A stretch of 49,593 nt of DNA from Candidatus Parcubacteria bacterium. Lineage in GTDB: Bacteria > Patescibacteriota > Patescibacteriia > Patescibacteriales > UBA12075. The notes under the pieces were generated by a model, which was given only the letters and a program-made list of their open reading frames with translations, did not search any database and was not told where the DNA came from. The stretch lies in NCBI GenBank assembly GCA_002869165.1, contig PKTK01000011.1, forward strand, positions 1 to 49,593, read 5' to 3'. Every line of letters starts with the position of its first letter. Positions within the stretch are counted from its first letter, which is position 1. A program made the translations under genes and the position numbers. Below are positions 6,182-48,228 of the stretch, in pieces.

Positions 6182-6220
6182 TTCATCATAAGCATAAATA
6201 TTAAATACATACTGAGTATT

Positions 6221-9200: not shown

Positions 9201-12200
9201 ATTGTAAGTGTTCCAGCGGTGTAATTAGAATTATCGCAAGTCAATGTAGCTGTTGCAATATCTCCCACCTTTAGAGTGCCTGAAGTGATATTTAAATTAA
9301 CACTTGAAATAACTGGCCTGGTAGCATCTACTCCTGGTCTAGTACTAGGACTTGCTGTAGTATAAGAACCTGAAATATTGCCCGCCACATCTTGAATGTT
9401 TAAATTAACAGGCAAGTCATCAGCATCTGTTCTATTTGTGTCACCTTCGACCACAGTATAGGCAACCGTGTAACTACCACCTCCAATGCCAGTAAATGTT
9501 GAGCTAACATCTTGTCCATTAATAATCATGACAGATCCAGCAAGTAGTCCAGTTTCGGATCCTGATACCGCAATAGTTGCTGTAGCAGTATCTCCGATCT
9601 TCAATATTCCTGAACTAGGATTAAAAGTAACTGTATTAATGCTTGGAGTATTAGCATCAATTGTGGCTGAATTTGCATCAATTAAAGTAAAAGCGGGAGT
9701 GCTAGGATTATCAGCTGAATCAATGAATACTGCGCTAATTGGAATTGCTCCGGGAGTTGATATATCATCATCTCCCTCCTGAACAGTGTAATCAAATGTA
9801 TATGTCAGATTGTTTATTTTCTGTATATTGGTCGCGCTCACATTATTTATTGTAGTTGCTCCTAAGCTATAAGTATCAGTATCAGAGCTAACTGTGGCCG
9901 TGGCTGTGATCGTATCTCCTACTTTATAAGCTAAACTTGGAATGGCCAAGGCTGTGATCACTGGTCTATGAGCATCAACCGAAGCTGTATTAGCAATCAA
10001 TGAAGTAAAAGCAGGGTTATTTTGATTACCCGCCTCATCAGTTACTACAATGCTGATTGGAATAGTACCAGCTGACCTATCAGTATTTCCTTCAACAACA
10101 ACATAATCAACATTGTAAGCGGTATCGCTTTGCTTAACTAAATTTTGTGCATTTACTCCATTGATAGTAGACGGTCCTAAAGTATAGACATCCGTATCAC
10201 TAGTAACTGTAAGCACTAAAGTAATAGTATCACCTATTCCATAAACATTATTAGTAATAGTAGCCTGAGAAATAGTCGGTCGATGGGAGTCAACCCCAGG
10301 TCTATTTCCTGCATCAGCTGTATTATAAGCGGGACTAGCATTATTACTAGCATCAAGCATAGAAAAACTAATTGGTAGATCATCTGAATCAAGTCTATCA
10401 GTGTTTCCTTCGACAACTGTATAACTCACTGTGTAAGTATTGTCATTATTGTCTATAAAAGTACCAGAGACATCAACACCATTAATAGTCATGGTACTAG
10501 CCGTGTAGCCAGTAGCATCAGATATAATAGTAGCGGTTGCAGTGTCCCCAATTTTCAAAACACCTGAACTTGGGCTAAAGGTAACATTGTTTATTGGTGG
10601 TGGATAATTATCAAGCGTTACGGTAGTGGTGGCAGTATTACCTACGCTAACCCCATCATAAGACGTCAAAGCAATACAGTAAGTACTAGAAGCATTGAGC
10701 TCATCAGTATCAGACAGCCAATCAAAATCAATAGTATTGATTCCTTCTGAAGTTATTACATAACCACTGGCATTACCTATCTGGTATGTGTTATCATTTT
10801 CTACTTTTGGATCTGTAGTTCTGTCTGAAGTAGTATTCAAATCTGTTTCATCAATTGTTGCTTTAGTCATATTAGAACAAGTAGTACCTTCCTGATACTG
10901 AACCAAGGTCATCACCTCATCATCATCATTGTTATCGTCCACTGTCATTTGTATATCAACTGCACCAGTGCCATCAGTTTTTTGAAATGCTGATACTATT
11001 GTCGTAGTTGGAGCATCATTAGGAGTATAGGTAACCCGCAAATAAATCTGATCGATATATAAAATTTTTGGCTGTGAATTACTAGTATTTAAACCATAAA
11101 TTCTGGTATCTAAGTCTTGTACATCTGACCAAGTCCAAGTACTAGGAGCATTGGCATCACTATATACACTTGTCCATTGGATTGCATCTAAGTCGGTAGT
11201 AGTAAAACCAGCTACTGGATAACCTGAACCATTAGTGGAGCCACCAAAACGAGGAATAATATACGGCGTTACTTCAACCCCTTCTACAAAACCTTCGATA
11301 CCGATTTCTACGTTAGAGATTACAAAAGGTAAGTTTGGAACAGTGGTAGAACTACCCTCTAAATAATTAGCTGAGTCATTTTCACTTCTTCTTGGAATAT
11401 CTCGTTCTGCATAGGTATTATCAGTATTGTCCCAAGCTTGAGTATCAGTAATCCAATTAATACTAGTACCGTCATTATATATATAAGTATTTACATCATC
11501 AGAAGCGATCTGCCACTCTCTCTTTTCTGTAAAATCTCCCAACTCAAGTGGTCCAATCACATAAAATTCTGGCGAAATATCTGGAGCATCAAAATTATAA
11601 TCAATAATTAGCTCATCACCAATATTTAAATCAACATTTTTAACTGTTAAATACTTCTCTTGCTCAAAATTTCCAATTTCCAATTTCCAGTTTTCAATTT
11701 CATTATTCACTTTTATTTCATAACTTCCAATATTAAAATTTACCGGTACTTTTTCAATCACATCCCCTCTAAAACCAACATTTGCCCTTACACGGATCTC
11801 CATATCATAATCATAGGTTGGGTTAATACGAGTTGGACCATACCTTTGTATATCAAAATTAGTACTTGAAACAACCGAAAAAGTATCGCTTATTTCAAAT
11901 TCTCCATTATCAGTCACGGCTTTTAATTTAACAACATAGTCACCAATCGCCCCCACACCATAATACGCATCATAATCAGGGCTCTCAATATAATTATCAG
12001 CTCCGCACTCTGAATTTCTGCCTATAAGTCCATTATCAGTATTTAAGTAAGCAACTCCTCCATCAGGTGAAGTAATTTCCAAGTACAACTGCGAATCACA
12101 AAGAGTGTGTCCCAGCTCATTAAGGACAGCCATTTGCAAATAGGCTTCTTCACCATTATAATATTCAGCCTTGTCAAAATTCAGAGCCAAGACTCCCCAG

Positions 12201-12655
12201 GAAAAATCCTGTTCATAATTAATTATGTGTTCACCATCAATTATCTCTAATTCAAGCTTGTATTCGCCTGCTCGCAATTCTTTACTACTCTTATCAATGG
12301 ATAAACTAAATTCTCCATCTCCCAAATACTTAACCTGTGGTTTTAAATTACTTTTAAGTCTTCCTTGAGCATCTCTTACTTCTGCTTTTATTTCAATATC
12401 CTCATACTGATCTACAAACAAACTCATCAAAAATTCCTTAAAAGAAGAATAAACATTCTGCTTCCTTTTATATTCAAAAACTAAATTCGCATCGTCTTTA
12501 AGGGAAAAGCTATTTCCCGTACCTAAATTTTTCAAAACAAAATTATCATTATCTACCCCCACTTCCTGAGCCAACACAAACAAAGGAACGAGCAACACAA
12601 AAACAAACATTGTTATGCTTTTTAGGAAAGTTCTTGTTGTTTGTTTTTTGTTCAT
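6221..12655 (-). CDS. Giant exported surface/adhesin-like protein with FN3-like and ~110-aa beta-rich repeats (N-terminal 2144 aa of a ~3421-codon frame)
   Basis: N-terminal signal/TM segment; tandem repeats (LKIGDTATATI...VVEG.TDR.D.DDLP); ends mid-repeat at ISDLL*. Confidence 0.85.
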   Translation of the reverse strand: MNKKQTTRTFLKSITMFVFVLLVPLFVLAQEVGVDNDNFVLKNLGTGNSFSLKDDANLVFEYKRKQNVYSSFKEFLMSLFVDQYEDIEIKAEVRDAQGRLKSNLKPQVKYLGDGEFSLSIDKSSKELRAGEYKLELEIIDGEHIINYEQDFSWGVLALNFDKAEYYNGEEAYLQMAVLNELGHTLCDSQLYLEITSPDGGVAYLNTDNGLIGRNSECGADNYIESPDYDAYYGVGAIGDYVVKLKAVTDNGEFEISDTFSVVSSTNFDIQRYGPTRINPTYDYDMEIRVRANVGFRGDVIEKVPVNFNIGSYEIKVNNEIENWKLEIGNFEQEKYLTVKNVDLNIGDELIIDYNFDAPDISPEFYVIGPLELGDFTEKREWQIASDDVNTYIYNDGTSINWITDTQAWDNTDNTYAERDIPRRSENDSANYLEGSSTTVPNLPFVISNVEIGIEGFVEGVEVTPYIIPRFGGSTNGSGYPVAGFTTTDLDAIQWTSVYSDANAPSTWTWSDVQDLDTRIYGLNTSNSQPKILYIDQIYLRVTYTPNDAPTTTIVSAFQKTDGTGAVDIQMTVDDNNDDDEVMTLVQYQEGTTCSNMTKATIDETDLNTTSDRTTDPKVENDNTYQIGNASGYVITSEGINTIDFDWLSDTDELNASSTYCIALTSYDGVSVGNTATTTVTLDNYPPPINNVTFSPSSGVLKIGDTATATIISDATGYTASTMTINGVDVSGTFIDNNDNTYTVSYTVVEGNTDRLDSDDLPISFSMLDASNNASPAYNTADAGNRPGVDSHRPTISQATITNNVYGIGDTITLVLTVTSDTDVYTLGPSTINGVNAQNLVKQSDTAYNVDYVVVEGNTDRSAGTIPISIVVTDEAGNQNNPAFTSLIANTASVDAHRPVITALAIPSLAYKVGDTITATATVSSDTDTYSLGATTINNVSATNIQKINNLTYTFDYTVQEGDDDISTPGAIPISAVFIDSADNPSTPAFTLIDANSATIDANTPSINTVTFNPSSGILKIGDTATATIAVSGSETGLLAGSVMIINGQDVSSTFTGIGGGSYTVAYTVVEGDTNRTDADDLPVNLNIQDVAGNISGSYTTASPSTRPGVDATRPVISSVNLNITSGTLKVGDIATATLTCDNSNYTAGTLTINSIDVSATFVNNLDNTYTVYYEVQEGNNDILDANDLPVSFTVFDINGNESNAFTSADPDNRPGVDANTPSINTVTFTPSSGVLKVGDTATATIAVSIIEAGLLAGTTMTINSIDVSSTFTDIGGGNYTVSYTVKEGNADILDTEDLPVNLNIQDSAGNISSSFTTADPDNRPGVDANTPSIPGNLTFVDHSDHTITIQFGSPSTDDNFLEYKIFYKVGISGVTENDSAWTQVEDADLADRLFNSTATTTISDLLAQTQYVFNIWAYDIAGNKASATTELVTNTNYAPLEATNLNQYKSDGTTIINNGAWTNENQIRLMATSSDPEGEDLDLYFEFLPVASSSLVATSVPVSACSSATAYGLCSSNVWTIGSGADEVNIINIPDSYNGYKWQVLACDNEGTCSEWVKFNASTPNVKVDNTPPSSPGNLVEYSKTNTTVTLSFGASSSEDNFREYIIYYKVGSSGVTENDLSHSSTTDNNLFYQDYNSATSTIIYNLSAGTKYVFNIYAYDEAANVTSASEITVTTDSAANPPTGDFNSVAQKTDGSGVIDISVEIDDPDNDDTLRLKLEYVAGASCDFSSPLDPSIDSSDENITADYGDPDLDNNYPYQIGTTSNWVWTSPGSNTVNFDWLSAIDEPDADGVYCLRLTANDGTYSQLVSATTTIYIDNLEPSSPGALSLNTQNTYDLVLNFGGASVENNFDTYKIFYKQGTSGVTENDIEHIDTNLLNQNYNSIATTSVSSLQAGTDYVFNIWAYDLYGNKSSSSEVSVNTNHIPGLAFSLLQRKTDQVTPIENGAWTDESNVFFSASVNDDDPSEVLSLYYEIRYVGDSFLTATTVPENVCGEGDDFLACSSKVWSITSSNGDYSLSPYIGSGTLPALPDSSTGFKWQVLACDDNNVCSDWVDAGVDPNFKVDTVDPSSPGNLSFNSRTYNSVTLDFGATTTEDNFREYIIYYKTGASGVTENDSMHSSTTDINLFNKYYNGAQNTTISDLL
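8657..9034. repeat. Identical 48-bp direct repeats (8657-8704 and 8987-9034), 330 bp apart, inside the giant gene
   Basis: AATACTTGGCGTATTAGCATCCACGCCTGGGCGATTGTCTGGGTCAGC present twice. Confidence 0.9.
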
Positions 12656-12663
12656 ATTATCAA

Positions 12664-12761
12664 TGTCATTGCGAACGTAGCGAAGCGAGGTGAAGCAATC
12701 TCAATTAAATGCACTCGACAGAGATTGCCACGTCGTCGCTTCTCTCCTCCTCGCAATGACA
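12664..12761. repeat. REP/MITE-like palindromic element (TGTCATTGCGA...GCAATCTC / GAGATTGC...TCGCAATGACA)
   Basis: Terminal and internal inverted repeats; related TGTCATT...AATGACA elements at about 20454-20480, 20595-20698 and 38524-38587. Confidence 0.75.
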
Positions 12762-12771
12762 AAGGTTTATA

Positions 12772-15700
12772 TTATTCTCCTCCGTCATCATTTCTCCATC
12801 TATAATGAATCTGTTCTACATAAACCAATTTAGTCTGGTAAAAATCTAGATACGTATCAAAGTCCTCAACTGCACTGTCATTCGTAGTATACAATTCTGC
12901 ATCATAATCAACACTAGTTGATGCAAAAGTATTAGCAAATATCAAATTAAAATTTAGTGTACAAGAATTGTCAGCACAAACTGATGAACTAGACGGACCA
13001 ACGCTCACAGCACTATTTATATCTGTACCAGTTTCAGTAAAAGTATCTTCTGATTGACTCCAAGTGAATTCCAGATCAGAAAATGGCGTATTGTAATCAT
13101 TGTCATCAGCAAGTCTAAGCACCACTTCATCAAGTACAGCATATCCATTTGCCTCACTTACAACTGCTTGAAAATTATATTCTGTTACTGCGTCCAGAAC
13201 CAACCAATTGCTAGTCACAGGATTAGTTAAGGTTAAAGAAACGTTGTTTACCGAACCATTGGTCTTGACTGTTATTTCCTGAGCGCTACTTGCATGGCCA
13301 AATAGATCATATGCCCAGATATTTATCACGTAATCAGTACTAGGAATAAGCCCTTCCAGAGTGGTTGACCCTGCGCCATTATAATCAATTAGCCCCAAAC
13401 TTGGATCACCTGGAATTGTTGATGAACTAAACTCTATATTTGCCTCTGTCACTCCACTTATTCCTTCTTTGTAATGAATATCGTAATGAGAAAAATTCGT
13501 ATCACTTGAAGCATTGCCAAATGCAAGCGTTATGGTAGAAGTACTTTTTGATTCCACTATTAGATTACCAGGTGCAGTTGGATCAACATTATCAAGCACC
13601 AATGTGGTAGTTGCTGGATTATTCTGATCATCGATCAAGTCATTGGCTGTAAGACGAAGGCAATAAGTATCATCAGCATTTGGCAGATCATTCACAGTAT
13701 CCCAATCAAAAGAAACAGTGTTTGTAGCTGGGGTCAATATATAACCATTTGCATTACCAATTTGATAATCATTATCATTTTCAATTGACACCACACCATA
13801 AGAGGTCCCGATATTTGCAGACGTCTCATCAAGCAAAGGATCAAGCCCGCCTGCCCCAAAGCTACAATCAGCGCCTTGCACATATTCAAGTTTGGCAATT
13901 GCGAAAGCGTTTGCAGTATCTAGATCATCAACATCAATTGAAATATCAACCACGCCCGAGCCATCTGTTTTTTGCGTAGCTGGACTAGCACTTGTAAAAA
14001 TAGCTGTAGGGGCTTTATTTGTTTTGTATGAAAAAACCGTAGAACTAGACACATGACCATATTCATCATAAGCAAACATTGAAAAATAATAAGTAACATT
14101 TTCTAAAAGACCTAAAATAGTAGTTGTTGCCTCGCTATTAAACAAAACATTATTCAAATTAATATCTGATTTTGAGGCATGCATATAGTCAAGCTCATCA
14201 ATATCTGAAGAAGTTGCGTAATATATCCTATATTCTAAGAAATGCATATCACTTGAGGTAGCACCATAATACAAAGTAACACTTTCCTTAGTAGAACTTG
14301 CTCCCACGAAAGTTCCTGGTGCGCTAGGAGCTTTATTGTCGATTGTTAAAGTGGTGGTGGCTGGGCTCGCATCAACATTATCTCCGTCAGTTGCTGTTAA
14401 CTGCAAACAATAATCACCTTCCGTGTCACTCGTATCAAGTGCGCTCAACCAGTCAAAATTAACTGTTGAAGTTCCTCCACTCATAGTAATATAACCTGTA
14501 GATGTTCCAATTTGATATATTTGATTATTATCAATATCAGCATCCCCTGGACTAGAAGTAGCATTAGCATCAGTCTCGTCTAAAGTCGGGTCAAGTGGGG
14601 TTGAAAAATCGCAAGTATTTCCTGGTACATAGTCAAGCCTTGCTCTTGAGTTATCATTGTCCTCATCATAAACCTTGACAGTAATATCAACCACGCCACT
14701 ATCGTCCTTTCTCTGCAAGACAGAGATAAATTCTGAATCTGGAGGATTGTTTGGAGTATAATCAACCCTTATATATATCTGATCAATATATAGATTATTA
14801 GGAGTAGAGTTTGATGAGTTTCCTCCAAATAAACGCACATCAAGATTGGCAACATCAGCCCAAGTCCAAGTTGTTGGAGCATTAGTACTATTTGTAATAT
14901 CAATATAAAATGGAATGCTGGTGTCTGTATTTTCCATTTCAGTTGCTGTTATTTGATACTGATCTCCAGCGCTTATTCCGCCAAAATAAGGAGTAACATA
15001 AGTTGTTATTGTTGTACCATCTACATAACCTTCAATTCCCACTTCAACCGTATTTATATCACCTCCCAAATTAACTGAGGAATTTATGTTTGATTGAATA
15101 TAATTAGCTGGCTCACCTCCCCCTGTCTTTTTAGGAATCTCTCTATATGCATATGTATCCACTCCATTGTCCCAGGCCCAGGTCGAAGATGCCCAACCCA
15201 CATGGACACCATTAGTAGAAGTGCTTACGATAATAACATCAGAAGCAATCTGCCATTCTCTGGCTTCATGCCACTCAGCAATTTCAAGTGGTCCTAATAA
15301 ATAAAACTCTGGAGAAATATCTGGAGCATCGAAGTTATATACTATTATCAATTCATCTGCAATTTCCAGATCAATATTGGTCCAAGAAATCTCTTTTTCA
15401 TATTCAAAGTCCATTTCTCTAAATTTTGACTTAGGACTAGTGCTTGCCAAAGTATCATTGTAGATTAAATACTCACTGCTAGAAGCTTCTTTTAAATACA
15501 CGGTCTGCGTAGCAATCTCAAAATCAATTGGCACGTAGTCGTAAATATTACCAGAAAAATTTTCATTTGCCTTAATAGTGATAGCCATATCATAATCAGC
15601 CAATGGATAAATTCTGGTTGGACCGACTCTCTCAACGTCATAAGCTACATATTTATCTTTTCTCAAGATGTCGTTTATTGTATAAGTTCCGTTGTCAGTC

Positions 15701-18129
15701 ACGGCTGTTAAGCTCAAGTTATATTCACCAAACTCATCCATGATATAAAAAGCATAATAATCAGGATCGTCCATAACCTTTTCAGGAACACATTCAGGAT
15801 TTCTGGCTAATAAACCATTATCAGTTGAAAGGACTGAAGTAATGCCAGTAGGAGAAGTTATCTCCAGGCTCAATTCAGCTTCGCACAAAGTATGTCCATA
15901 GTCATCAAGTACGGCCATTTGCAGATAAGCAGTATCATCATCAGGGCCATATATAGACTTATTGGCGTTGATCGCCAAAACTCCCCAAGAAAAATTCTGT
16001 CCAATATCAATAGTCTGCTCATCACCACTAGATAGATCTGAAATAGTAAAGACTAGTTTATATTTACCTGGTTTATAACCTCGAGGCATATATGGAAGAC
16101 GGATCTCAAAGTTACCATCCTCCTCAAAGATCATAGAAAGTGGTAAATCCAAAAAATTACCTTCCATATCTTGTAAACTCACGTTAATATCAATATCTTC
16201 CCAATAACTAGCTAGTCCAAACATCTCCCCCACACTATCAAGTAGAGCTTGTCTATTTTTTAAATAATGAAATTTAAGTACACCTTGTTCATTCATGGCA
16301 AAATCAAGCTTATTAGAAACCAAACTCAAAGCTTTTTCCCACTCTTTTCTCTCATTTATTTTCTTTACTGTATCACTGGGTTCATATTCAGCTTCTACCC
16401 AGACGCCATCAATGTAAGCGATGTATTCGTTTTGCGCATCAATTGCTTCCACTCTAAGTTGTAAATTCTCAATGTCTTCCCAATTACTTAAAAACGAAGC
16501 ATCAAAACTAAAATAGCCATCACTCAACGCATTCACTACTAAATCATCACTAAGAGTATCCAATTTATGCCACACCACGTCATCAGCCATACCAGTAGTA
16601 GAGGAAATACCATACCAAATTATTAATTTTGCTTCACCCAAAATACTACTCTGCGCTTGGGCTTTTTTTATAAATTGAAATAAACTTATTTCTTCGGTTT
16701 CTACACTTTCTTCACTAAAATTTTCCTCTATTTCAATAACTTCTTCTACCTCTTCCACAGTTTCAACAGAAGCTTCAATAATTTCATCTTCTTCTTCAAC
16801 AATAACCTCTGCTTCCTCTTCTGCTCCTTCAGTAATCTCTACACTAATTCCCTCCGTTTTTGCATCTGCCATTCCAGCCTCAAGTACTTCTAGATCATCT
16901 TCCTTTAATTTTAGTTCCAAATCATCTGTGTTTATAGAGTCTTCATCAAATACTAATTCAGTGTCCTTATTTTGAGAAATAATTTCTTCCTCTTCTTCTA
17001 TCACAATCTGTTCTTCTTGATTAATATCATCAACACTTGTAACTGTATTGCTTTCTGGTTCAGTTTCTACCCCTAAAACTTGCATTGCCATGGAAAGTTT
17101 GATGCTAGCACTCTTAAAAACGCCTAAATCACTTAAACTTATAGCTCCTTCACTTACCATTTCAATTGCTTTAGCTTCAGTTGTTCCCCAAATATTATCA
17201 AAAGTATCTAAAAATCCTAGATCCAAAATTTCCTCAGCTTCTGCTGGTGTTTCTTCTAGCTCCTCTAGACTAGCTTCATCTTCCTCAATTATTTCAATTT
17301 CTATATTATCTTGGGAATCAAATTCTTGTAAATTTTCATCACTTTCAATATTCAAAGGCTCCAAACCCTCATCTGTGTTTTCTTCAATAAAAATATCTTC
17401 TTCATTTATAAAATCATTAACAATATCTCCATCAGTTATAACTTCTATTTCATCACTAGATTCATTTTTTTCTAATACTTCAATCTCTTCGTCTGTAATT
17501 GTTTTGATGTCATTAGTACTAACCACTTCATCTTCAGTAATTGCGCTTGACTCAAATTCTTGGTTACCAGTATTTTCTACATCTGTAATCAACTCCACAC
17601 TAGCATCAATCGTAGCAGTTTCTTCTATAGTCTCCTCTTCTTCTCTTATCAATTCTTCATCTACCTCTTCTTCTGAAGAAAATACGCCTAAATCTTCTTC
17701 TAAAAATCTAAAACCAGAAAAACTAAGGCTAAAATTACCACCAGTATAAAAGGCTGAGTTACCATCATTAAAATCTACCAAATTACCATCCTCTGGAATC
17801 TGCGGAGCAAAAGTGGCGAAATCCATATTCCACCAACCTTCTTCAAAAGACTCAGCTTCCTTGTCTTGAATTGCAGAGCTGGCATAAAGTTTAATGGTTT
17901 CAGTTTTGGTGTAATTAGCTTTTAAGGTATTTATGATAATTTCTAGAGGAGAAAAACCAAAAAGCATCAAAAATACAAAAACCCCAACAAAAAGCAAAGA
18001 CCAGCTAAAAAATCTATTTTTCAGCTGGCTGTTTTTGCTCTCTGTTTTACCAAATTTTAAACCAAATTTAGTATTCTTTGAGCACAATATCTGGTTGTGC
18101 TTATTTAATTGCATGGGGATGCTATTCAA
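12772..18129 (-). CDS. Giant membrane-anchored surface protein (1785 aa) with acidic low-complexity region and FN3-like repeats; paralog of the downstream giant protein
   Basis: N-terminal TM helix, E/D-rich stretch, shared FSWGVLA.N..K...AYLQMAVL...GHTLC module and FN3-like repeats. Confidence 0.85.
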   Translation of the reverse strand: MNSIPMQLNKHNQILCSKNTKFGLKFGKTESKNSQLKNRFFSWSLLFVGVFVFLMLFGFSPLEIIINTLKANYTKTETIKLYASSAIQDKEAESFEEGWWNMDFATFAPQIPEDGNLVDFNDGNSAFYTGGNFSLSFSGFRFLEEDLGVFSSEEEVDEELIREEEETIEETATIDASVELITDVENTGNQEFESSAITEDEVVSTNDIKTITDEEIEVLEKNESSDEIEVITDGDIVNDFINEEDIFIEENTDEGLEPLNIESDENLQEFDSQDNIEIEIIEEDEASLEELEETPAEAEEILDLGFLDTFDNIWGTTEAKAIEMVSEGAISLSDLGVFKSASIKLSMAMQVLGVETEPESNTVTSVDDINQEEQIVIEEEEEIISQNKDTELVFDEDSINTDDLELKLKEDDLEVLEAGMADAKTEGISVEITEGAEEEAEVIVEEEDEIIEASVETVEEVEEVIEIEENFSEESVETEEISLFQFIKKAQAQSSILGEAKLIIWYGISSTTGMADDVVWHKLDTLSDDLVVNALSDGYFSFDASFLSNWEDIENLQLRVEAIDAQNEYIAYIDGVWVEAEYEPSDTVKKINERKEWEKALSLVSNKLDFAMNEQGVLKFHYLKNRQALLDSVGEMFGLASYWEDIDINVSLQDMEGNFLDLPLSMIFEEDGNFEIRLPYMPRGYKPGKYKLVFTISDLSSGDEQTIDIGQNFSWGVLAINANKSIYGPDDDTAYLQMAVLDDYGHTLCEAELSLEITSPTGITSVLSTDNGLLARNPECVPEKVMDDPDYYAFYIMDEFGEYNLSLTAVTDNGTYTINDILRKDKYVAYDVERVGPTRIYPLADYDMAITIKANENFSGNIYDYVPIDFEIATQTVYLKEASSSEYLIYNDTLASTSPKSKFREMDFEYEKEISWTNIDLEIADELIIVYNFDAPDISPEFYLLGPLEIAEWHEAREWQIASDVIIVSTSTNGVHVGWASSTWAWDNGVDTYAYREIPKKTGGGEPANYIQSNINSSVNLGGDINTVEVGIEGYVDGTTITTYVTPYFGGISAGDQYQITATEMENTDTSIPFYIDITNSTNAPTTWTWADVANLDVRLFGGNSSNSTPNNLYIDQIYIRVDYTPNNPPDSEFISVLQRKDDSGVVDITVKVYDEDNDNSRARLDYVPGNTCDFSTPLDPTLDETDANATSSPGDADIDNNQIYQIGTSTGYITMSGGTSTVNFDWLSALDTSDTEGDYCLQLTATDGDNVDASPATTTLTIDNKAPSAPGTFVGASSTKESVTLYYGATSSDMHFLEYRIYYATSSDIDELDYMHASKSDINLNNVLFNSEATTTILGLLENVTYYFSMFAYDEYGHVSSSTVFSYKTNKAPTAIFTSASPATQKTDGSGVVDISIDVDDLDTANAFAIAKLEYVQGADCSFGAGGLDPLLDETSANIGTSYGVVSIENDNDYQIGNANGYILTPATNTVSFDWDTVNDLPNADDTYCLRLTANDLIDDQNNPATTTLVLDNVDPTAPGNLIVESKSTSTITLAFGNASSDTNFSHYDIHYKEGISGVTEANIEFSSSTIPGDPSLGLIDYNGAGSTTLEGLIPSTDYVINIWAYDLFGHASSAQEITVKTNGSVNNVSLTLTNPVTSNWLVLDAVTEYNFQAVVSEANGYAVLDEVVLRLADDNDYNTPFSDLEFTWSQSEDTFTETGTDINSAVSVGPSSSSVCADNSCTLNFNLIFANTFASTSVDYDAELYTTNDSAVEDFDTYLDFYQTKLVYVEQIHYRWRNDDGGE

Positions 18130-25436: not shown

Positions 25437-26300
25437 TCATAACAAATCCTCTATTTCCTGCAAACTCTTACTTGCCACCTTAGTATAAACTTGAGTAGTT
25501 TCAAGTCTAGCGTGCCCAAGCAGAGATTGAATATATCTAAGATTTACGTTGTTCTCAAGCAAATGAGTAGCAAAAGTATGACGAAGAGTATGAGCTGAAA
25601 CATTTTTATTAATTCCCGCTCTACTAGAAGCTTCAGTAACTACTTTTTGAATAGATCTCACGCTCATCCTCTTACCAGCTGATAATGACTCAAATAAATA
25701 TTTCAAAGGTTTATATTCCAGTAAATATTTATGAACATTCTCTAAAACAATCTCTGAAATTATAGTATTTCTATCCTTCTTCCCCTTCCCTTGTTTAACT
25801 AATATCATTTTCCGATCAAAATCTACATGATCAATCCTTAAGTCTTTCAACTCAGAAACACGAAGCCCAGAACAATATAATATCTGAATCATAAGCTTAT
25901 GTTTAATATTTTCACAAACCTTTATCATTCTAACAATTTCTTGTTTATACAAAACAATTTGAAGTTTTTTGTCACTTTTTGGTCTTTTAATATCGGATGC
26001 ACCATTAAGTATTCTCCTTTTTAAAATTCCTTGATAATAATATTTTAAAGAATTAATAACCAAATTTATTGTCGCACTTGATTTTCCGCTGTCTACTAAA
26101 TATTCTAAATAGTCTTTTATATCAGAAGATGTTATTTCCTTTGGTGACTTATAATTTGCAAATCTTAGCATATCTTTGTTATAATAAAGATAAGATTTTA
26201 TTGTTTTGCTAGAGAATCTAGATATTTTCATGTTCTGCTCCAAATTCCGCATCGGATCACGATCATCAGTTGTAGTTCTAGAAAGATTAGATGTATTCAT
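25437..26300 (-). CDS. Tyrosine recombinase/integrase, integron-integrase-like but without the IntI-specific insertion
   Basis: N-terminal SAM-like domain; catalytic GLRVSE, KGKKDR, HTLRHTFATH, LLGH, TTQVY; KDR to YLFES spacing too short for the I2 insertion; diverges from the cassette array. Confidence 0.92.
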   Translation of the reverse strand: MNTSNLSRTTTDDRDPMRNLEQNMKISRFSSKTIKSYLYYNKDMLRFANYKSPKEITSSDIKDYLEYLVDSGKSSATINLVINSLKYYYQGILKRRILNGASDIKRPKSDKKLQIVLYKQEIVRMIKVCENIKHKLMIQILYCSGLRVSELKDLRIDHVDFDRKMILVKQGKGKKDRNTIISEIVLENVHKYLLEYKPLKYLFESLSAGKRMSVRSIQKVVTEASSRAGINKNVSAHTLRHTFATHLLENNVNLRYIQSLLGHARLETTQVYTKVASKSLQEIEDLL

Positions 26301-26355
26301 AACTCCTTGTGATTACATAATTATATAAATATTTTAACTAATTTTTAACAAAACA

Positions 26356-26384
26356 ACAACAAGTTCACATATAACTTGTTGTAC
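26356..26384 (+). other. Putative attI-like site
   Basis: Perfect 10-bp inverted repeat ACAACAAGTT-7nt-AACTTGTTGT containing the GTT (26378) that starts cassette 1; 55 bp upstream of the integrase start. Confidence 0.6.
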
Positions 26385-26526
26385 GAAATAAATTTTTTAT
26401 CTTATAAAGTATTGATGTTTAAGTATTTTGAACACGACGAAAATTTGATTTTTTTTATTAATTTAAAGAGGGGAAATATTGTGTATTCTCTGTTACGCAT
26501 TCGCGCCACTGCGAAAACGAATTATT

Positions 26527-28086: not shown

Positions 28087-28158
28087 GAAATAAATAAATT
28101 CTTTTCTGCTATCGCAGAAAAATTATTAAGGCAATTTTTATTCTTTATTTTTTTTACT

Positions 28159-28926
28159 ATGAAAAATGAACTTATCATTAAAAATCTTCGTTTAGTCGTT
28201 GCGGATACTTATGAAGAAATGAGCCAATATACCGCTGACCAAATCCACAATGACATTAAAAAGAAAAGTAACCTGCTTATCTGCACTGCCACCGGCTCCA
28301 CTCCAACAGAAGCCTATGATATGCTTGCCAAAAAATATGACGATGAGCCAGAAGTATTCAGTGGCGTCCGTTTTATTAAACTTGATGAGTGGGGCGGAAT
28401 TCCCATGGATGACCCGGCAACCTGTGAGGTTTATTTACAAGAACATTTGATTTCACCGCTCCAGATTGAAGCATCAAGGTTTGTTTCTTGGAATAGTATT
28501 CCCGAAGACCCAAATCAGGAAGTGAAACGGATATCTAATATGTTTGCCGACGAAGGTGATATTGACCTTTGTATACTTGGCATGGGTGTAAACGGTCATC
28601 TCGGTTTTAACGAACCAGCGGAATTCCTACGTCCCAGTGCACACGTAGCCGAACTCACTGAAACGACAAAAAAACACACAATGGCGCAAAAGGCAGAACA
28701 TGGCATTCAGTATGGATTAACCTTAGGAATGAACGACATTATGAGATCGAAAAAAATCTTGCTATTAGTGAACGGTTCCCACAAAGAAAAGCCTTTCAAG
28801 GAATTTCTTGCTGGTAAAATTACAACTAAATTCCCAACCACCATGCTCTGGATGCATCCGAACGTCACTGTGGTATGTGATAAAGAAGTAGTTCCAAATA
28901 TTGATAAAATTAACAGCCAAAAATAA
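28159..28926 (+). CDS. Cassette 2: glucosamine/galactosamine-6-phosphate isomerase (NagB/YieK-like) family protein
   Basis: ATGSTP, LDEW, LGMGVNGHLGFNEP, GLTLGM..IM, LWMHPNVTVVCD motifs. Confidence 0.9.
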   Translation: MKNELIIKNLRLVVADTYEEMSQYTADQIHNDIKKKSNLLICTATGSTPTEAYDMLAKKYDDEPEVFSGVRFIKLDEWGGIPMDDPATCEVYLQEHLISPLQIEASRFVSWNSIPEDPNQEVKRISNMFADEGDIDLCILGMGVNGHLGFNEPAEFLRPSAHVAELTETTKKHTMAQKAEHGIQYGLTLGMNDIMRSKKILLLVNGSHKEKPFKEFLAGKITTKFPTTMLWMHPNVTVVCDKEVVPNIDKINSQK

Positions 28927-28980
28927 AGAATAAAAATTGCCTTAATAATGCTCGCTATCGCTCGCGAATTTATTTACATC

Positions 28981-29071
28981 AGCTAACAGCGTGTATACGG
29001 TTCGCGCTTGCCTCCGGCAAATGCTCACCCAAATTTGCTTTGCAAACTTCGTATACACGCAAACGTTATGT
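28981..29071 (+). repeat. attC-like site 2 (shortest complete site)
   Basis: AGCTAAC-A-GCGTGTATACG-GTTC..TTGCC/GGCAA..CCCAAA TTTGC/GCAAA CTT CGTATACACGC-AAAC-GTTATGT. Confidence 0.87.
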
Positions 29072-30494: not shown

Positions 30495-30637
30495 ACTTAA
30501 CACCGCGATAAGCGGCTACAGAAAAATTCCTTCAATAGATTAAATAGGAGGAAATTTTTCTTCCGACCCAAATTTTGATTCCTTAATAATTATAATAAGG
30601 AAGAATCAAAACTTCGCTTCATCGGGAAACGTTATGT
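30495..30637 (+). repeat. attC-like site 4
   Basis: CGATAAGCG/CGCTTCATCG stem, CCCAAA, TTTTGATTC/GAATCAAAA, AAAC-GTT at 30631. Confidence 0.85.
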
Positions 30638-30659
30638 GAAATATTATTAAAACTTTTTT

Positions 30660-31022: not shown

Positions 31023-31237
31023 ACATAACACCGCGATAAGCGGCTACAGAAAAATATCTAATCAAAGCTCTCTCTTTGCTACCGCTTAAGAGAGATAATA
31101 ATCAGGAGTATAATTTTCTTTCGACCCAAATTGCGCTGACGATAATCATTGTTTAGTGCTATAATGACTGTAAGTAAATAATCAATATCTAATTTATATA
31201 TCCACGCGCAACTTCGCTTCATCGGTGAGAGTTAGAC
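31023..31237 (+). repeat. attC-like site 5
   Basis: Same ACCGCGATAAGCGGCTACAGAAAAAT start as site 4; CCCAAA TTGCGC...GCGCAA CTT CGCTTCATCGG; GTT at 31231. Confidence 0.82.
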
Positions 31238-31310
31238 GTAATTGTCCTTTTTATAATTATTTTTTAAAAAAAAGAAGCCGTCTGTTTCATTTCAAACGGC
31301 TCTGACATAG

Positions 31311-31803: not shown

Positions 31804-31942
31804 GTCTAACACTCGATATCTGGTTACATATTTTTTCCAATTAATTAATAAGGAACAAAAAAATACTCCACCCAAATTTGTGATATAATTATTAAACTTA
31901 ATAAGGAATATCCCAAACTTCAGATATCGAGAAACGTTCAGC
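31804..31942 (+). repeat. attC-like site 6
   Basis: CTCGATATCTG/CAGATATCGAG stem, CCCAAA, AATAAGGA loops, AAAC-GTT at 31936. Confidence 0.85.
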
Positions 31943-32143
31943 GAAATCGTGCGCCCTCGCTATCGCTCAGTGCTCCGCTTCCGCTAAACGGCTGCGGTCC
32001 CCGAGTTCGGCATTATCGTTTCACTTGCCCTTCGGTCAAGCGCCTCGACAACGCCGAACTCGGCATATACGAAATGTCCAGCCTCAGTCTTCGCTCCGCT
32101 CAGCCTGCGTCTGGCCACTTCGCATATACCGCAGCCGTTGTAT
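31936..32143 (+). repeat. ORF-less cassette 7 plus a GC-rich second-type site; first 140 bp duplicated at 33286-33425
   Basis: GTTCAGCG..CGCTAAAC; AAC-GGCTGCGGT...ACCGCAGCC-GTT perfect stem; CCGAGTTCGGC/GCCGAACTCGG hairpin; copies differ at 4 of 140 positions. Confidence 0.85.
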
Positions 32144-32244
32144 GAAATAGTGACTCAATCAATCTATTTTAAGTACTTGCATATATAGGATTTTTGTGCT
32201 AATTTAACTTGAATTTCATTGATTTCGTCACTACAACACACAAC
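32137..32244 (+). promoter_or_regulatory. Cassette 8: ORF-less cassette with a putative sigma70 promoter
   Basis: TAGTGAC/GTCACTA terminal repeats; TTGCAT(32177)-17-TAATTT(32200) with extended TG. Confidence 0.5.
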
Positions 32245-32797
32245 ATGTGATATGAGACTACGAGTGATGATAAATTTGTTTTTGTTCTTAATATAAAAAT
32301 TAAAAAATCAGAGTTGTGTTAACCATTAATAACAAGGAGAATTATTATGAGTGTATTAGAGCTGAGTCTGGATTTCATGATAGCCGCTAACATCTTAGAT
32401 GAATTTGAGCTAATCATTGACAAAAATGTTGGTAAAAAATATGGAGAAATCTTAGTTTTCGAATATGAGGCTGGTAGATATGCACCTGAAAAATTTTGTC
32501 GCTATGCATTGATGGAGCAAAAAGCGGAAGGGAAAATCCCTCCTGATGTTAATGCATATCACATTGTCGAACTAACATGGATTAATGCAAAAACAAACAT
32601 GATAGCATTCCAACCACTAATTCTTTAAATGCTCACGGTGTAAACTAGTAACAAAGTTTACACCCAATTCTGATTTTTTAATTAACATCAAGGAAAAAAC
32701 AAAAAATAAATTCATCATCCCTCTCCGTCCAAATTTTACAGATAATAATAAAATTAATAAGTTATCTGTAAAACTTCTCATATCACTCTAGTTGTAC
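32238..32797 (+). repeat. attC-like site 8, expanded to ~560 bp with a gene inside hairpin A
   Basis: GTGATATGAG/CTCATATCAC outer stem; arms AATTAAAAAATCAGA/TCTGATTTTTTAATT flank ORF 32347..32628; TCCAAA TTTTACAGATAA/TTATCTGTAAAA CTT. Confidence 0.8.
32347..32628 (+). CDS. Hypothetical protein (93 aa) nested in attC-like site 8
   Basis: AAGGAG RBS; followed by hairpin GGTGTAAACT/AGTTTACACC. Confidence 0.75.
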   Translation: MSVLELSLDFMIAANILDEFELIIDKNVGKKYGEILVFEYEAGRYAPEKFCRYALMEQKAEGKIPPDVNAYHIVELTWINAKTNMIAFQPLIL

Positions 32798-32894
32798 GAA
32801 ATAGCCCTTCTCATTTCTACGAAAGCAATGTTCGTGGCAAAAAAAAGAAGCCCTTGCAAATCTAATAGAAATGCGAAGGGCTACATCGTACAAC
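32791..32894 (+). other. Cassette 9: ORF-less 104-bp cassette
   Basis: GTTGTACGAAATAGCCCTTCTCATTTCTA ... TAGAAATGCGAAGGGCTACATCGTACAAC. Confidence 0.75.
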
Positions 32895-32947
32895 ATGTGA
32901 TATCTGGTTCCAGAAGTGAAAAGTTTTATTTTATTCTTTTAAAGAAA

Positions 32948-32978
32948 AAAGTCATTACTATATTTCAGTAATGACTTT
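32948..32978 (-). terminator. Intrinsic terminator of the tRNA-like RNA
   Basis: 12-bp stem AAAGTCATTACT/AGTAATGACTTT followed by a T-run on the minus strand. Confidence 0.75.
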
Positions 32979-32987
32979 AACACGGGA

Positions 32988-33122
32988 CGCGCTGCATTGG
33001 ACTCGAACCAAAGGTTAAATATCCTAACACGTTATGCTTATGCAATATGTGTGCACCCACTTACACAGTTCACAACACGTATCATTGGTATTCGACCTGC
33101 TCCCTCACTAAGCTAACAGCAC
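32988..33122 (-). ncRNA. tRNA-like RNA (135 nt) with a long hairpin replacing the anticodon arm
   Basis: Acceptor GTGCTGT/GCAGCGC, TA-GCTT-AGTGAGG-GAGC D-arm, TTGG-TTCGAGT-CCAA T-arm; extended GGTCGAATA/TATTTAACC stem. Confidence 0.7.
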
Positions 33123-33155
33123 GTTATAATCTGAATGAACATTTTAATTGATAAA

Positions 33156-33183
33156 ATAGTAACATAAATTTCACACTTGTCAA
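33156..33183 (-). promoter_or_regulatory. Sigma70 promoter for the tRNA-like RNA
   Basis: TTGACA-16-TACTAT with extended TG. Confidence 0.65.
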
Positions 33184-33285
33184 TAACACCATGAAATAAA
33201 ATAAAACTTTTCACTTCTTACTCCCAAATTTTTGAAAAATAATTAATCTTAATAAGGAGTTTCAAAAACTTCAGATATCACCCTA

Positions 33286-33425
33286 GTTCAGCGAAATCGT
33301 GCGCCCTCGCTATCGCTCGATGCTCCGCTTCCGCTGAACGGCTGCGGTCCCCGAGTTCGGCATTATCGTGTCACTTGCCCTTCGGTCAAGCGCCTCGACA
33401 ACGCCGAACTCGGCATATACGAAAT
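33286..33425 (+). repeat. Cassette 10: second copy of the ORF-less GC-rich unit, truncated at CATATACGAAAT
   Basis: 136 of 140 bases identical to 31936-32075. Confidence 0.85.
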
Positions 33426-33516
33426 AATAAAAAACATTTTCCATTCGGAAAATAATTATTTTGTTAATTTATAAAAAAAGAGTTCCATGATTTTTCCTTC
33501 ATGAAACCCTATGGTG

Positions 33517-45906: not shown

Positions 45907-45999
45907 AGGCTAAATCCTCCAAATTTTATTTTATTTATTTTTCCTTTAATATTTCACTTTTATCAAATGAAATATTAGAGAAAAGCGAAGTTTTCTCAT

Positions 46000-46278
46000 T
46001 TATTCCTCCAAAAAATAAAATTTATCATCTACTTTCAAACAATCCCTCATTCCTTCTATCCAAATAAAAGCTTCTGCGTTCTCATAATAATAATTATCCT
46101 CCTCGACAGTTTCTAGTTTTTTAACGCTTTCTTCTTTAACTACGCAGACTCCACAACAAACTTTTCCCATAAAACTCAATTCTCCTTTTTCCCAAGCATT
46201 AATCAGATCTTTCTTATTTCCCTTGAATTCTACTCCATAACTTGCAAACCCAAATTCTTCATCGATGTAAATTTTCAT
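46000..46278 (-). CDS. Hypothetical acidic protein (92 aa)
   Basis: AAGGAGG RBS; bounded by repeats. Confidence 0.75.
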   Translation of the reverse strand: MKIYIDEEFGFASYGVEFKGNKKDLINAWEKGELSFMGKVCCGVCVVKEESVKKLETVEEDNYYYENAEAFIWIEGMRDCLKVDDKFYFLEE

Positions 46279-46470
46279 AATAGCCTCCTTGGCTTTTGTT
46301 TTTTTGTCTTTAATATTCCCTCTAACATTGCACTTAGTATAAATGAAATATTAGAGAAAAGCGAAGTTTTCTCGTTTTGCTTTTGCTTGATCTTCTCATC
46401 CGGTAACGCTCAAGCAAGCATTACTCTGACCACCCAAGAAGTAGGTGCCTAAAAAGGTAAAGTCAAGCTC

Positions 46471-46764
46471 CTAGACCCTGGTGATCAGAAAAGGAGTAAC
46501 ACCGATCTCGAGAATCTCCTCGATGGTGTACTCTTTTCCGAACTCGAGTCGGCCCTTGGGCTTCAAGGCAAGTGCCTCATCATAGCCCTGGCAGACTCCT
46601 CGAGTCTCGGTCGGATCGACACCGATCGCCTTTACGGTCTGGTGACCGCAAAAGTTCTCAGCGTCTACCGCCCAAGCCCGAGCTTCGTCGAGAGAAATCA
46701 CCTTGGCGGTGAAATTTCCCTCTTCGAGGAGCATAGGAGCAGAAAGAATTGCTTTTCTCGTCAT
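46471..46764 (-). CDS. DUF1874/STIV B116-family protein (AcrIII-1-like cA4 ring nuclease)
   Basis: ISLDEARAW...ENFCGHQT (conserved GH), TR, KGRLEFGKEYTIEEI match the family pattern; GGGAGG RBS; visibly GC-richer than its surroundings. Confidence 0.75.
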   Translation of the reverse strand: MTRKAILSAPMLLEEGNFTAKVISLDEARAWAVDAENFCGHQTVKAIGVDPTETRGVCQGYDEALALKPKGRLEFGKEYTIEEILEIGVTPFLITRV

Positions 46765-46923
46765 AGAGCAAGCCTCCCTTCCTTAATTAATTGTCAAATG
46801 TTTATCAAGGAGTGACAATATCTCCTTCCCTCTAGCATCTCACTACTTATAATGAGATATTAGAGAAAAGCGAAGTTTTTTTAATTTTTTTCTTACTGAA
46901 ATTGTAACAATTTAAAGTGTTTT

Positions 46924-47231
46924 GCTCAGGCCGATTGATAAAGTCGGTTTTTCCATATCGCTATCGAGGCACACTTTAGCCCCGCAATCATTCCGCTCCA
47001 ATGCGAGAGCGAACACGGAGATTTGATTGAACTCCCCAATTACCTCAGAATTTTATTCTTTGGTTTTTGGTCAAGACCGTGGATAAATATATGTTATCAA
47101 TTCATATACCATCCCACACCTAGTTTACAATATCTTTAAAACAATACATTGTTTTAAAGTATTGCTGCTACTACAATGGTACTTAACTGTCACCATTTAT
47201 AGCAGTGCTAGGATTTTCACTATTACAACCC
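46924..47231 (-). ncRNA. Candidate structured ncRNA, copy B
   Basis: No ORF of 60 aa or more on the sense strand; shares ordered sequence blocks with copy A. Confidence 0.6.
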
Positions 47232-47320
47232 AATAGCATTTCACAAATAATTTATGAAATATTATCGAGGGGAGACTTTTTCGATTGTCGAAAAAATCTC
47301 CCTAAAATGTGTTTGAAATA

Positions 47321-47640
47321 GCGGGTCCGATTGATGGTCGGTTTGTGCTTGCCTATTTCTTTTTCTTAACGAGGTCACTTTTTTATCCCCGCAATATCCT
47401 TCCTTTGCTTTATTTAATGGCGCAAAGGATTACAGATGGTTAGTCTGCTTGTTGGTTTGGATCGTGGATGCTCGGATCAAGCACCCCCTTGCTTTTTACA
47501 ATATCCCTTGAGGAAAGGAAATATCGCTTCGGGCTCTACGTGGCCCCTTGGAGGAGATCACTACCCCCAACCCATGGCGAGTTACCAACTCACCCCGAAT
47601 CGCTTACGCGACACTTCCGGACAGTCAGAAGATTTTTGGA
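47321..47640 (-). ncRNA. Candidate structured ncRNA, copy A
   Basis: GC-rich hairpins with minus-strand G-U pairs (GGTGAGT/ACTCGCC, GGGTGCTT/GAGCATCC); homologous to copy B. Confidence 0.6.
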
Positions 47641-47726
47641 TTTCTCCTCTAGCATCTCACTACTTATAATGAGATATTAGAGAAAAGCGAAGTTTTCTCT
47701 CTCTACAAAAGCAAAATCTTGCGGAC

Positions 47727-48086
47727 TTATTCATAGCCTGCTAAACATGATGAACATGCTAAATTCAGCTGGCGATGATTAAGATCACGAAGAAAAACAA
47801 TGTCGATTTTATTTAAAATCGCCTTGTCTTTCACTGTGTACCCATAAGATTTTACTTTGACAATCTTTACACGCTTATACAACATGATATATCTTCTTGC
47901 TTTGCAACAATAGAATTTTTTTTCTACTGGTCCAGAAACTGCAAGCGCAATAAAATAAACTGTGTAAAGCTTGTCTTCAAAACGCATAAAATGATCTTTT
48001 ATCCGTTTTGACTTACCAGGATTTTTTAAGATCCTGGCTTCTGCAACATAAAATGGGATACTTCCTATCTTTTTTGCTTTTTCCAT
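47727..48086 (-). CDS. Hypothetical basic protein (about 119 aa; likely start ATG 48086)
   Basis: AAGGGGGA RBS; the longer upstream start would run through a repeat. Confidence 0.7.
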   Translation of the reverse strand: MEKAKKIGSIPFYVAEARILKNPGKSKRIKDHFMRFEDKLYTVYFIALAVSGPVEKKFYCCKARRYIMLYKRVKIVKVKSYGYTVKDKAILNKIDIVFLRDLNHRQLNLACSSCLAGYE

Positions 48087-48228
48087 TTTTGTCCCCCCTT
48101 TTTTCCTGAACATTCCACTTAGAAAAAGCCTGTTTGAGAAAAGCGAAGTTTTCTCGTATTGCATTGATAGTGTCCGCTTATCAGGCGCCCAGGTGCTTCC
48201 CCTGAGTATTACAGGTCAGTTTATATCC

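Follow-up and report, generated by a model that had tools for sequence, protein, structure and literature searches.

Integron-like cassettes of a Candidatus Parcubacteria genome with a gene inside the hairpin of the recombination site

The array and its recombinase

The window, meaning the whole 49,593-nt stretch of DNA analysed, is contig C11 of a Candidatus Parcubacteria genome of 1.43 Mb with 33% G+C. It carries a gene for a Xer-like tyrosine recombinase next to a plus-strand array of 11 sites, which extends to approximately 35330 (Table 1). Gene and array diverge, and a divergent, co-oriented array starting from attI is the layout by which integrons are recognised. A near-copy of the attI-like start heads both a second array in the same genome (contig C6, locus L001, minus strand) and the array in locus L046, and no recombinase was found in the approximately 4 kb upstream of the start on C6. 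For the array in the window, classification as a CALIN, a group of attC sites without an integrase, was rejected, as a recombinase is present. Rfam searched at gathering thresholds returned only tRNA-Pro, and over 31900-33450 at E values up to 1 it gave a single chance-level miRNA match.

The recombinase scores 231 bits against the NCBIfam model XerA_Arch (cut-off 220) and 196 bits, in two stretches, against the integron-integrase model TIGR02249, under the cut-off of 265. Its closest solved structure is an archaeal XerC-like protein (4a8e), and its relatives are mostly from Patescibacteria group bacterium. Alignment to VchIntIA (2a3v) matches residues 22-184 of the recombinase with chain residues 11-172 and residues 212-278 with chain residues 242-308; approximately 42 residues are missing at the place of the IntI extra domain, and intI_Cterm, a criterion for IntI, was not found. 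Cury et al. (2016; PMC4889954) define IntI by an extra domain close to patch III, which the same text describes as necessary for IntI activity (citing Messier and Roy, 2001). Because the recombinase is without this IntI-specific domain, the system is integron-like with a Xer-like recombinase and not a classical integron, and its chemistry and the strand that it uses may differ from those of integrons.

Ordinary sites run in the order left core (...NNNNAAC), outer-left strand, hairpin A, CCCAAA, hairpin B, outer-right strand, unpaired AAAC and GTT, and their right ends are 12-nt cores of the form GTTNNNNGAAAT. In the ordinary sites of this array hairpin A measures 25-80 nt, the junction CCCAAA is invariant, the loop of hairpin B is often TTAATAAGG, and the AAC/GTT core pair carries a GAAAT/ATTTC extension. 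In attC sites, extrahelical bases on the R''-L'' arm select the bottom strand; here the AAAC spacer, read by eye, lies on the R' side of the stem, as does one extra base in some sites. As is required of integron cassettes, each cassette ends in an imperfect palindrome whose left, inverse core is the complement of its own cassette's first bases (e.g. AGCTAAC with GTTAGCT); such complementarity is the signature expected of integron cassettes that have passed through a circle with crossover at G/TT. The array also contains a truncated copy of a site, which stops after GAAAT, and the outer strands of site 2 in the C6 array match poorly.

Table 1. Positions of the array features discussed in the text.
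Feature	Positions	Strand	Basis
Tyrosine recombinase of the array, 287 aa, Xer-like	25437-26300	minus	Pfam Phage_integrase, 6.8e-41
attI-like array start: AAGTTCACATATAACTT then core GTTGTACGAAAT	26355-26389, core at 26378	plus	read from sequence
Core GTTGTATGAAAT; G closes cassette 7, TTGTATGAAAT opens cassette 8	32137-32148	plus	sequence
ORF-less body of cassette 8, imperfect hairpin with promoter-like pair in its loop	32149-32230	plus	inverted repeat
Left core (R''-like), twice in tandem: CTACAAC then ACACAAC	32231-32244	plus	read from sequence
Outer stem, left strand GTGATATGAGA	32247-32257	plus	11/11 complementary to 32776-32786
Left arm of expanded hairpin A	32258-32320	plus	inverted repeats, folds, compensatory columns
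Cargo: leader, RBS, 93-aa ORF, 10-bp hairpin	32321-32661, hairpin reaching 32664	plus	sequence, inverted repeat
10-bp hairpin 3' of the ORF	32637-32646 / 32655-32664	plus	inverted repeat
Right arm of expanded hairpin A	~32662-32728	plus	inverted repeats, folds
Conserved junction CCAAAT and hairpin B	CCAAAT 32729-32734, hairpin B 32731-32776	plus	15-nt arms, 93% complementary
Outer stem, right strand TCTCATATCAC	32776-32786	plus	11/11 with left strand
Core GTTGTACGAAAT; G at 32791 closes cassette 8	32791-32802	plus	sequence
Cassette 9, short ORF-less body; hairpin A encloses a minus-strand unit	32792-33297	plus	arms near 32901-32925 / 33196-33220
Truncated site copy	33287-33425

Cassette 8 and its site

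Cassette 8 spans 32138-32791 (654 nt) between two cores of the common form. The initial annotation described it as an ORF-less body followed by a site whose hairpin A is expanded around a 93-aa ORF, and all elements of that hairpin were confirmed in place: the RBS AAGGAG (32334-32339) is followed after 7 nt by the ATG at 32347, and the ORF occupies 32347-32628. From 32149 to 32244 the body holds no ORF of at least 40 aa, the longest being 25 aa, and its inverted repeat has arms at 32137-32174 and 32207-32244 that are 74% complementary. A hairpin described as terminator-like does stand 3' of the ORF, but the T-run begins 10 nt past its stem and the terminator scan does not list it. The same annotation held that a hidden GTT/AAC pair would make the ORF an ordinary cassette. 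None was found; the ORF is not an ordinary cassette because no left core with an outer-left strand lies between it and CCAAAT, and in the paralogue on C6 there is no GTT at the inner edge of the left arm.

Site 8 covers approximately 32238-32802, or about 565 nt. Integron attC sites are about 57-141 nt long with a short variable end, and site 8 falls outside that range. Its outer strands are separated by 518 nt and pair without a mismatch, and the arms of hairpin A, approximately 60 nt each, form 53 Watson-Crick pairs in the arm alignment. As single-stranded DNA, 32228-32802 folds at -72.2 kcal/mol on the top strand (z=-6.0) and -75.1 kcal/mol on the bottom strand (z=-6.4), with 0 of 100 shuffles as good in either case, and the architecture of the site is recovered in the minimum-energy and centroid structures of both strands. 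The tandem left core agrees with the start core at 32137-32148 in three of four variable positions, the complement expected from the cassette's own start being ATACAAC.

The 93-aa protein returned only itself in a word-indexed search, and a full phmmer search gave three weak matches (E=1.7e-5, 1.3e-4 and 5.9e-4). It matched no family in Pfam or NCBIfam and had no informative Atlas match; its own structure model has a pLDDT of 0.39. Hairpin A of the neighbouring cassette 9 is 317 nt long with 24 Watson-Crick pairs, and its loop contains, on the minus strand, a predicted promoter (TTGACA, 16 nt, TACTAT; 33183-33156) and a predicted terminator (32978-32948), together with a tRNA-like fold. The left core of cassette 9 (GTACAAC) agrees with the core at 32791-32802 in four of four variable positions. 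No further copies of the cargo, the site 9 loop or the GC-rich cassette were found elsewhere in the source genome.

Gene-bearing hairpins in related genomes

The 3' half-site pattern was found in 65 of 316 genomes of the same order, and the reversed pattern gave single matches in 18 genomes (our own count) and none in the source genome. Sites were surveyed in the arrays of nine pattern-bearing genomes, in 30 automatically picked loci and in the loci of recombinase relatives, and three loci selected partly for 3' halves like that of site 8 (G121:C73, G125:C101 and G125:C102) were counted separately. For each of 139 3' half-sites, an upstream complement of the outer-right strand preceded by AAC was sought, with a score of at least 17 taken as a pass; 78 of 139 passed, against 0 of 139 for the reversed-query control. 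The distance from the outer-left strand to CCAAAT in these 78 sites is bimodal, with 49 sites at no more than 100 nt and 26 at 201-800 nt; the three sites above 800 nt are probably false. Long hairpins A make up 21 of 73 sites when the three loci chosen for likeness are left out and 2 of 15 in the automatically picked loci, a lower share than in the chosen arrays and one obtained with flanks of only 1.5 kb.

Eleven genomes of three families contribute the 26 long sites, which represent at least eight outer-stem types. All 26 have complementary arms (18-61 Watson-Crick pairs) and all hold an ORF (39-177 aa), the longest of which points in the array orientation in 19 sites and in the opposite one in seven. 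The cargo ORFs are mutually unrelated except for one pair, and the ten largest include three NUDIX proteins, one GrpB, one GNAT and five with no Pfam family. Hairpin B is conserved in shape more than in sequence, with 101 distinct stem starts among the 139 sites and a mean of 8.0 of 10 basal positions paired. ORFs between the outer stem and CCCAAA, which the initial annotation proposed to look for in homologous arrays, are thus present in 26 of the 78 well-defined sites, and the tolerance of hairpin A for gene-sized loops that it had suggested is recurrent, each such loop having its ORF between complementary arms. This supports the gene inside the site hairpin as a regular second cargo place in related genomes. 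A second cargo place of this sort is not known from the sites of classical integrons. A literature search, mostly of open-access journals, returned no description of a gene inside an attC site, and for Patescibacteria and the candidate phyla radiation it returned none of arrays like this one.

The outer stem GTGATATGAG / CTCATATCAC was found in seven cassettes from five genomes: site 8 of the window, L001, L046 (G134), L050 (G124), L052 and L053 (both G125), and L056 (G121). Full-length arms are common to six of these seven carriers, those of L052 being shorter. A short leader and an AGGAGG-type RBS open the cargo, immediately after ...CAGAATTGGGC, and a GC-rich hairpin that differs in each cassette closes it, immediately ahead of CCAATTCTGATTTTTT. 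The first cassette of the C6 array (L001) is a paralogue of cassette 8, with the same outer stem, arms and hairpin B around a different 57-aa ORF and a different 3' hairpin. Median pairwise identity among the carriers is 90% in the left arm, 82% in the right arm and rest of the site, 68% in the body, 59% in the cargo, and 50% and 41% in the flanks beyond the cores, against a baseline of 45% for random 150-mers of the window; with the cargo and flanks near random, homology extends outwards no further than the cores and inwards no further than the inner ends of the arms. Among six carriers, columns 10, 22, 52 and 68 of the arm alignment show compensatory double changes, columns 44 and 69 do so in part, and the arms contain a conserved region of internal mismatch. 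A search of 25 genomes of the family for an empty carrier, with the same arms around a 2-32-nt loop, found none. The arm motif in the source genome is restricted to the two arrays, save for two 14-mers with one mismatch each, on C8 and C10. The exact right-arm 19-mer hit 52 stretches in metagenome contigs, most of them unrelated chance matches; by our own reading, related stretches are L070 and L081, where the arm lies at hairpin A, L086, which repeats the sequence of L046, L093, where the arm lies in the ordinary slot, and possibly L090.

The gene is framed by long inverted arms in ordinary cassettes too (cassette 2 of the window, L006); the first arm follows the start core directly, and the second stops directly ahead of a conserved TACATC and the left core. 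The arm family of the carriers, found in the hairpin A position in five genomes, occupies this ordinary slot in L054 (G125), L040 (G113) and metagenome contig L093, with the same cargo borders and with a short hairpin A in the site behind. In five cassettes the body and hairpin A each hold an ORF. In one of these, which starts at 8914 in L042, an ORF of 197 aa lies between the cores and one of 177 aa in hairpin A; the left core, GCCTAAC, agrees with the cassette start, GTTAGGC. The proposal of two cargo slots per unit is upheld both by the five cassettes that fill the two and by the occurrence of the same arm family in either.

The left cores of 25 cassettes with a long hairpin A match their own cassette start at a mean of 3.24 of four variable positions and their own end at 1.96, compared with a mean of 1.64 for random cores (largest of 200 draws, 2.32); 11 of the 25 match their start at all four positions. 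The corresponding value for 36 cassettes with a short hairpin A is 2.56, with random cores at 1.5-1.6. This comparison is the evolutionary equivalent of the excision test proposed in the initial annotation, and it indicates that body, site and enclosed gene have descended together as a single recombining unit.

Probable mobility of the cassette and comparison with integrons

Cassette 8 is likely to be a true mobile cassette belonging to an integron-like system for gene capture in Patescibacteria, with its gene placed in the variable branch of the site. The recombinase would need only a small part of such a site, namely the AAC/GTT core pair, the GAAAT/ATTTC extension and the 11-bp outer stem, and the end beyond the outer stem (hairpin A, CCCAAA and hairpin B) would correspond to the variable terminal structure (VTS) of attC. 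Genes would travel as cargo hairpins, in which long inverted arms surround an ORF together with its RBS-bearing leader and 3' hairpin, and which may sit either between the start core and left core, as is usual, or at hairpin A. In single-stranded DNA the approximately 60-nt arms would zip up and so place the outer-left strand beside CCCAAA and hairpin B; the outer stem and the core pair would then form as they do in a short site, and strand exchange at G/TT would move the whole 654-nt unit together. We infer that this folded form would be the substrate on which the recombinase acts, folded single-stranded DNA being also the form in which an integrase recombines attC. A module may have reached its slot by exchange through the arms, by rearrangement of neighbouring cassettes or by a dedicated step.

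For attC sites delivered as single strands, similar recombination rates are described whatever the length of the VTS (PMC8946536), and recombination of a Vibrio cholerae repeat (VCR) without its 65-nt VTS is described as little changed (PMC2727003), so a dispensable and expandable end would be expected for a site of this type. Under replicative conditions a long VTS is reported to cut attC recombination by up to 4 logs (PMC8946536), a cost at which the approximately 470-nt loop may make the site nearly inert. The unit would move mainly when its DNA is single-stranded, and a long-loop cassette in the chromosome would be more stable than a short-site cassette.

That the arms instead act in mRNA, the 5' leader and 3' tail pairing to stabilise or regulate the transcript and the place in the site being incidental, is unlikely. 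Such a role would be compatible with the DNA-site explanation, and a promoter-like body upstream of a cargo composed of leader, RBS, ORF and hairpin agrees with it. However, G.U pairs are not enriched among the 102 arm mismatches of the 26 sites: top-strand G.T accounts for 15 and bottom-strand G.T for 13, both at the random share, and the other 74 are of different kinds. The longest ORF is reversed in seven of the 26, and in the ordinary slot the same arms abut recombination cores. In L040 and site 9, moreover, the arms are kept around a reverse-pointing cargo with its own promoter inside the loop, and are therefore not the ends of that transcript. As G.T pairs are in excess on neither strand, an arm structure acting in DNA rather than RNA fits better.

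We regard as highly improbable a fused cassette, made from an ORF-less cassette that lost its right half-site and a following one that lost its left, with a chimeric and probably inactive site. Cassettes fused through attC truncation are known in integrons (PMC8876359), and both the truncated site in the array and the poorly matching outer strands of site 2 on C6 would suit such an origin. Chance fusion of two cassettes is nevertheless unlikely because two precise deletions would have to be repeated over at least eight outer-stem types and 11 genomes, while the outer stem of site 8 is perfect and the arms covary. The base of the carrier hairpin A, by our own reading, resembles that of an ordinary short hairpin A and not a core, and left cores match their starts better in long-hairpin-A than in ordinary cassettes. 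Insertion of an independent MITE-like or hairpin-targeting element into the loop of hairpin A, which may have inactivated the site, is also decidedly unlikely. IS1111-attC elements insert into attC sites. Group IIC-attC introns are likewise known to do so (PMC8876359), and the long terminal inverted arms around variable cargo, found at two kinds of position in several genomes and metagenome contigs, are what such an element would produce. Against it, there is no transposase, no target duplication was seen, copies occur only in cassette arrays, the cargo has no other copy in the genome, and no empty arms were found in the 25 genomes. Insertion of an intron or IS was rejected on the same absence of transposase and target duplication, together with the lack of an Rfam match.

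A mobile cassette with its gene in the variable branch of the site, the reading preferred here, shares with attC and VCR sites an imperfect palindrome with AAC...GTT cores, a boundary at GTT and an unpaired spacer by the core, and also a far stem end that is variable and branchable, dispensability of this end being an attC feature (PMC2727003; PMC8946536). Shape is conserved more than sequence in both. The VTS of attC is given as 3 to approximately 65 nt (PMC2727003), whereas here a gene-bearing branch of 200-800 nt occurs in 26 of 78 sites; further differences from attC are the 12-nt extended core, the conserved CCCAAA junction and a recombinase without the IntI domain. Fused cassettes and attC-inserting elements similarly yield more than a single gene with a short site, or foreign DNA in attC, but cassette 8 has no truncated second site, intron RNA match or transposase, and the interrupting DNA is one small gene framed by the cassette system's own arms.

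Integron-type sites are usually treated as short hairpins after the gene, and here approximately one third of the well-defined sampled sites enclose a gene, while some cassettes have two genes, each in a hairpin of its own. Should these sites be active, a structure-specific recombination site would accommodate at least 0.8 kb in its variable end, programs that search for short sites would miss or mis-split such cassettes, and cassette stability could be tuned by gene position, because a long loop should fold only in single-stranded DNA, e.g. after DNA uptake. Conserved arms, unrelated genes and two slots would also offer a handle on how genes and sites come to be joined. A more speculative and rather doubtful proposal is that the arm-framed cargo hairpin is itself the gene-loading unit, the ready-made site scaffold providing docking positions at the core end and at hairpin A into and out of which genes with the standard arms are exchanged; if true, the carrier family would give a natural view of the birth and re-use of integron-type cassettes.

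The short body probably supplies the promoter for plus-oriented cargo, for which there is promoter room only in the body or the left arm. ORF-less promoter cassettes are described in integrons (PMC8876359, citing Tansirichaiya 2019) and resemble the body of cassette 8 in being an ORF-less part that is a candidate promoter supply; an integron promoter cassette is separate and has its own attC, whereas cassette 8 comprises both the ORF-less body and the site with the gene. The promoter initially proposed for this body is present as a pair of hexamers, TTGCAT (32177-32182) and TAATTT (32200-32205) with 17 nt between them, but only six of their 12 positions agree with the sigma-70 consensus, and the promoter scan, with six sites in total against 4.9 expected, did not list the pair. 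By our own reading, a -35/-10-like pair with the same 17-nt spacing recurs in six of seven related bodies, where TTGACT, TTGACA or TTGATT precedes TAAKTT and the -10 hexamers are weak throughout.

Variation in site anatomy and gene-framing arms

The 93-aa gene of cassette 8 lies in an expanded hairpin A, the branch of the site that precedes the CCCAAA junction, and size is variable in both branches, since hairpin B is expanded in site 5 (a loop of ~80 nt closed by the stem TTGCGC...GCGCAA) and in the sites of the related locus L006, where its loops reach ~100 nt. In a subset of sites, including those at 30568-30642 and 31126-31242 and many further ones, the outer-right strand is one base longer than the outer-left (CGCTTCATCGG against CGATAAGCG is an example), and the unpaired AAAC falls on this same right side of the site. 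In classical attC sites the extrahelical bases are, by our reading, on the opposite arm. Site 8 has a left core duplicated in tandem, CTACAAC ACACAAC (32231-32244). The first copy is the closer fit to the start of cassette 8 itself, and the second adjoins the outer stem, which is the arrangement in other sites.

Ordinary cassettes, in which the gene lies outside hairpin A, also carry long inverted arms around that gene (Table), and the genes of the L006 cassettes are framed likewise. These arms begin directly 3' of the start core and stop before the conserved TACATC and left core; once the cassette is circular, they would give a longer core stem.

Table. Location of cassette-array features in the window and on contig C6.
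Feature	Location	Strand	Remarks
Long inverted arms framing the gene of an ordinary cassette	Window 28092-28153 with 28921-28982		
Site 5 with expanded hairpin B	Window 31126-31242		Hairpin A not expanded
G+C-rich ORF-less cassette	Window 31937-32137		200 nt; own GC-rich site type
Self-contained unit in the loop of site 9 hairpin A	Window 32940-33183	minus	Promoter and terminator (predicted)
Second copy of the G+C-rich cassette	Window 33287-33425		97% identical to 31937-32137
Second cassette array	L001 (G000:C6:38000-57000), ~10600 to 8650	minus	Same genome as the window

The unit enclosed by site 9

The predicted promoter of the site 9 unit is TTGACA, 16 nt and TACTAT, with a TG, and its predicted terminator is 13 bp. 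Folding of the ~200-nt RNA predicts a tRNA-like form in which acceptor, D and T arms (GGTTCGAGTCC) are present but the anticodon arm is very long. ARAGORN called no tRNA in the unit, Rfam made no call, and no further copies were found in the genome.

A truncated cassette copy, the second array and other repeats

The G+C-rich cassette stands out against a genome average of 33% G+C. Its second copy stops directly 3' of an internal ...TACGAAAT, and the body of the following cassette is fused on at that point; the left core of this following cassette, ACATAAC, predicts a different original start.

The C6 array holds three cassettes and is headed by another copy of the attI-like sequence; a recombinase gene is absent from the ~4 kb read upstream. 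Its second site has poor pairing between the outer strands, and the third cassette has a 133-aa ORF flanked by CCTTCAAACACAAA and TTTTTGTTTGAAGG, and a site whose 3' half is degenerate.

A separate repeat at 45924-48165 of the window, unrelated to the cassette sites, consists of five copies of TTAGAGAAAAGCGAAGTTTTCTC plus ~30 nt 5' of it, spaced 376-817 nt. On the minus strand at 2390-18129, three giant ORFs (1263, 2144 and 1785 aa) are composed of internal repeats of ~720-750 nt each.
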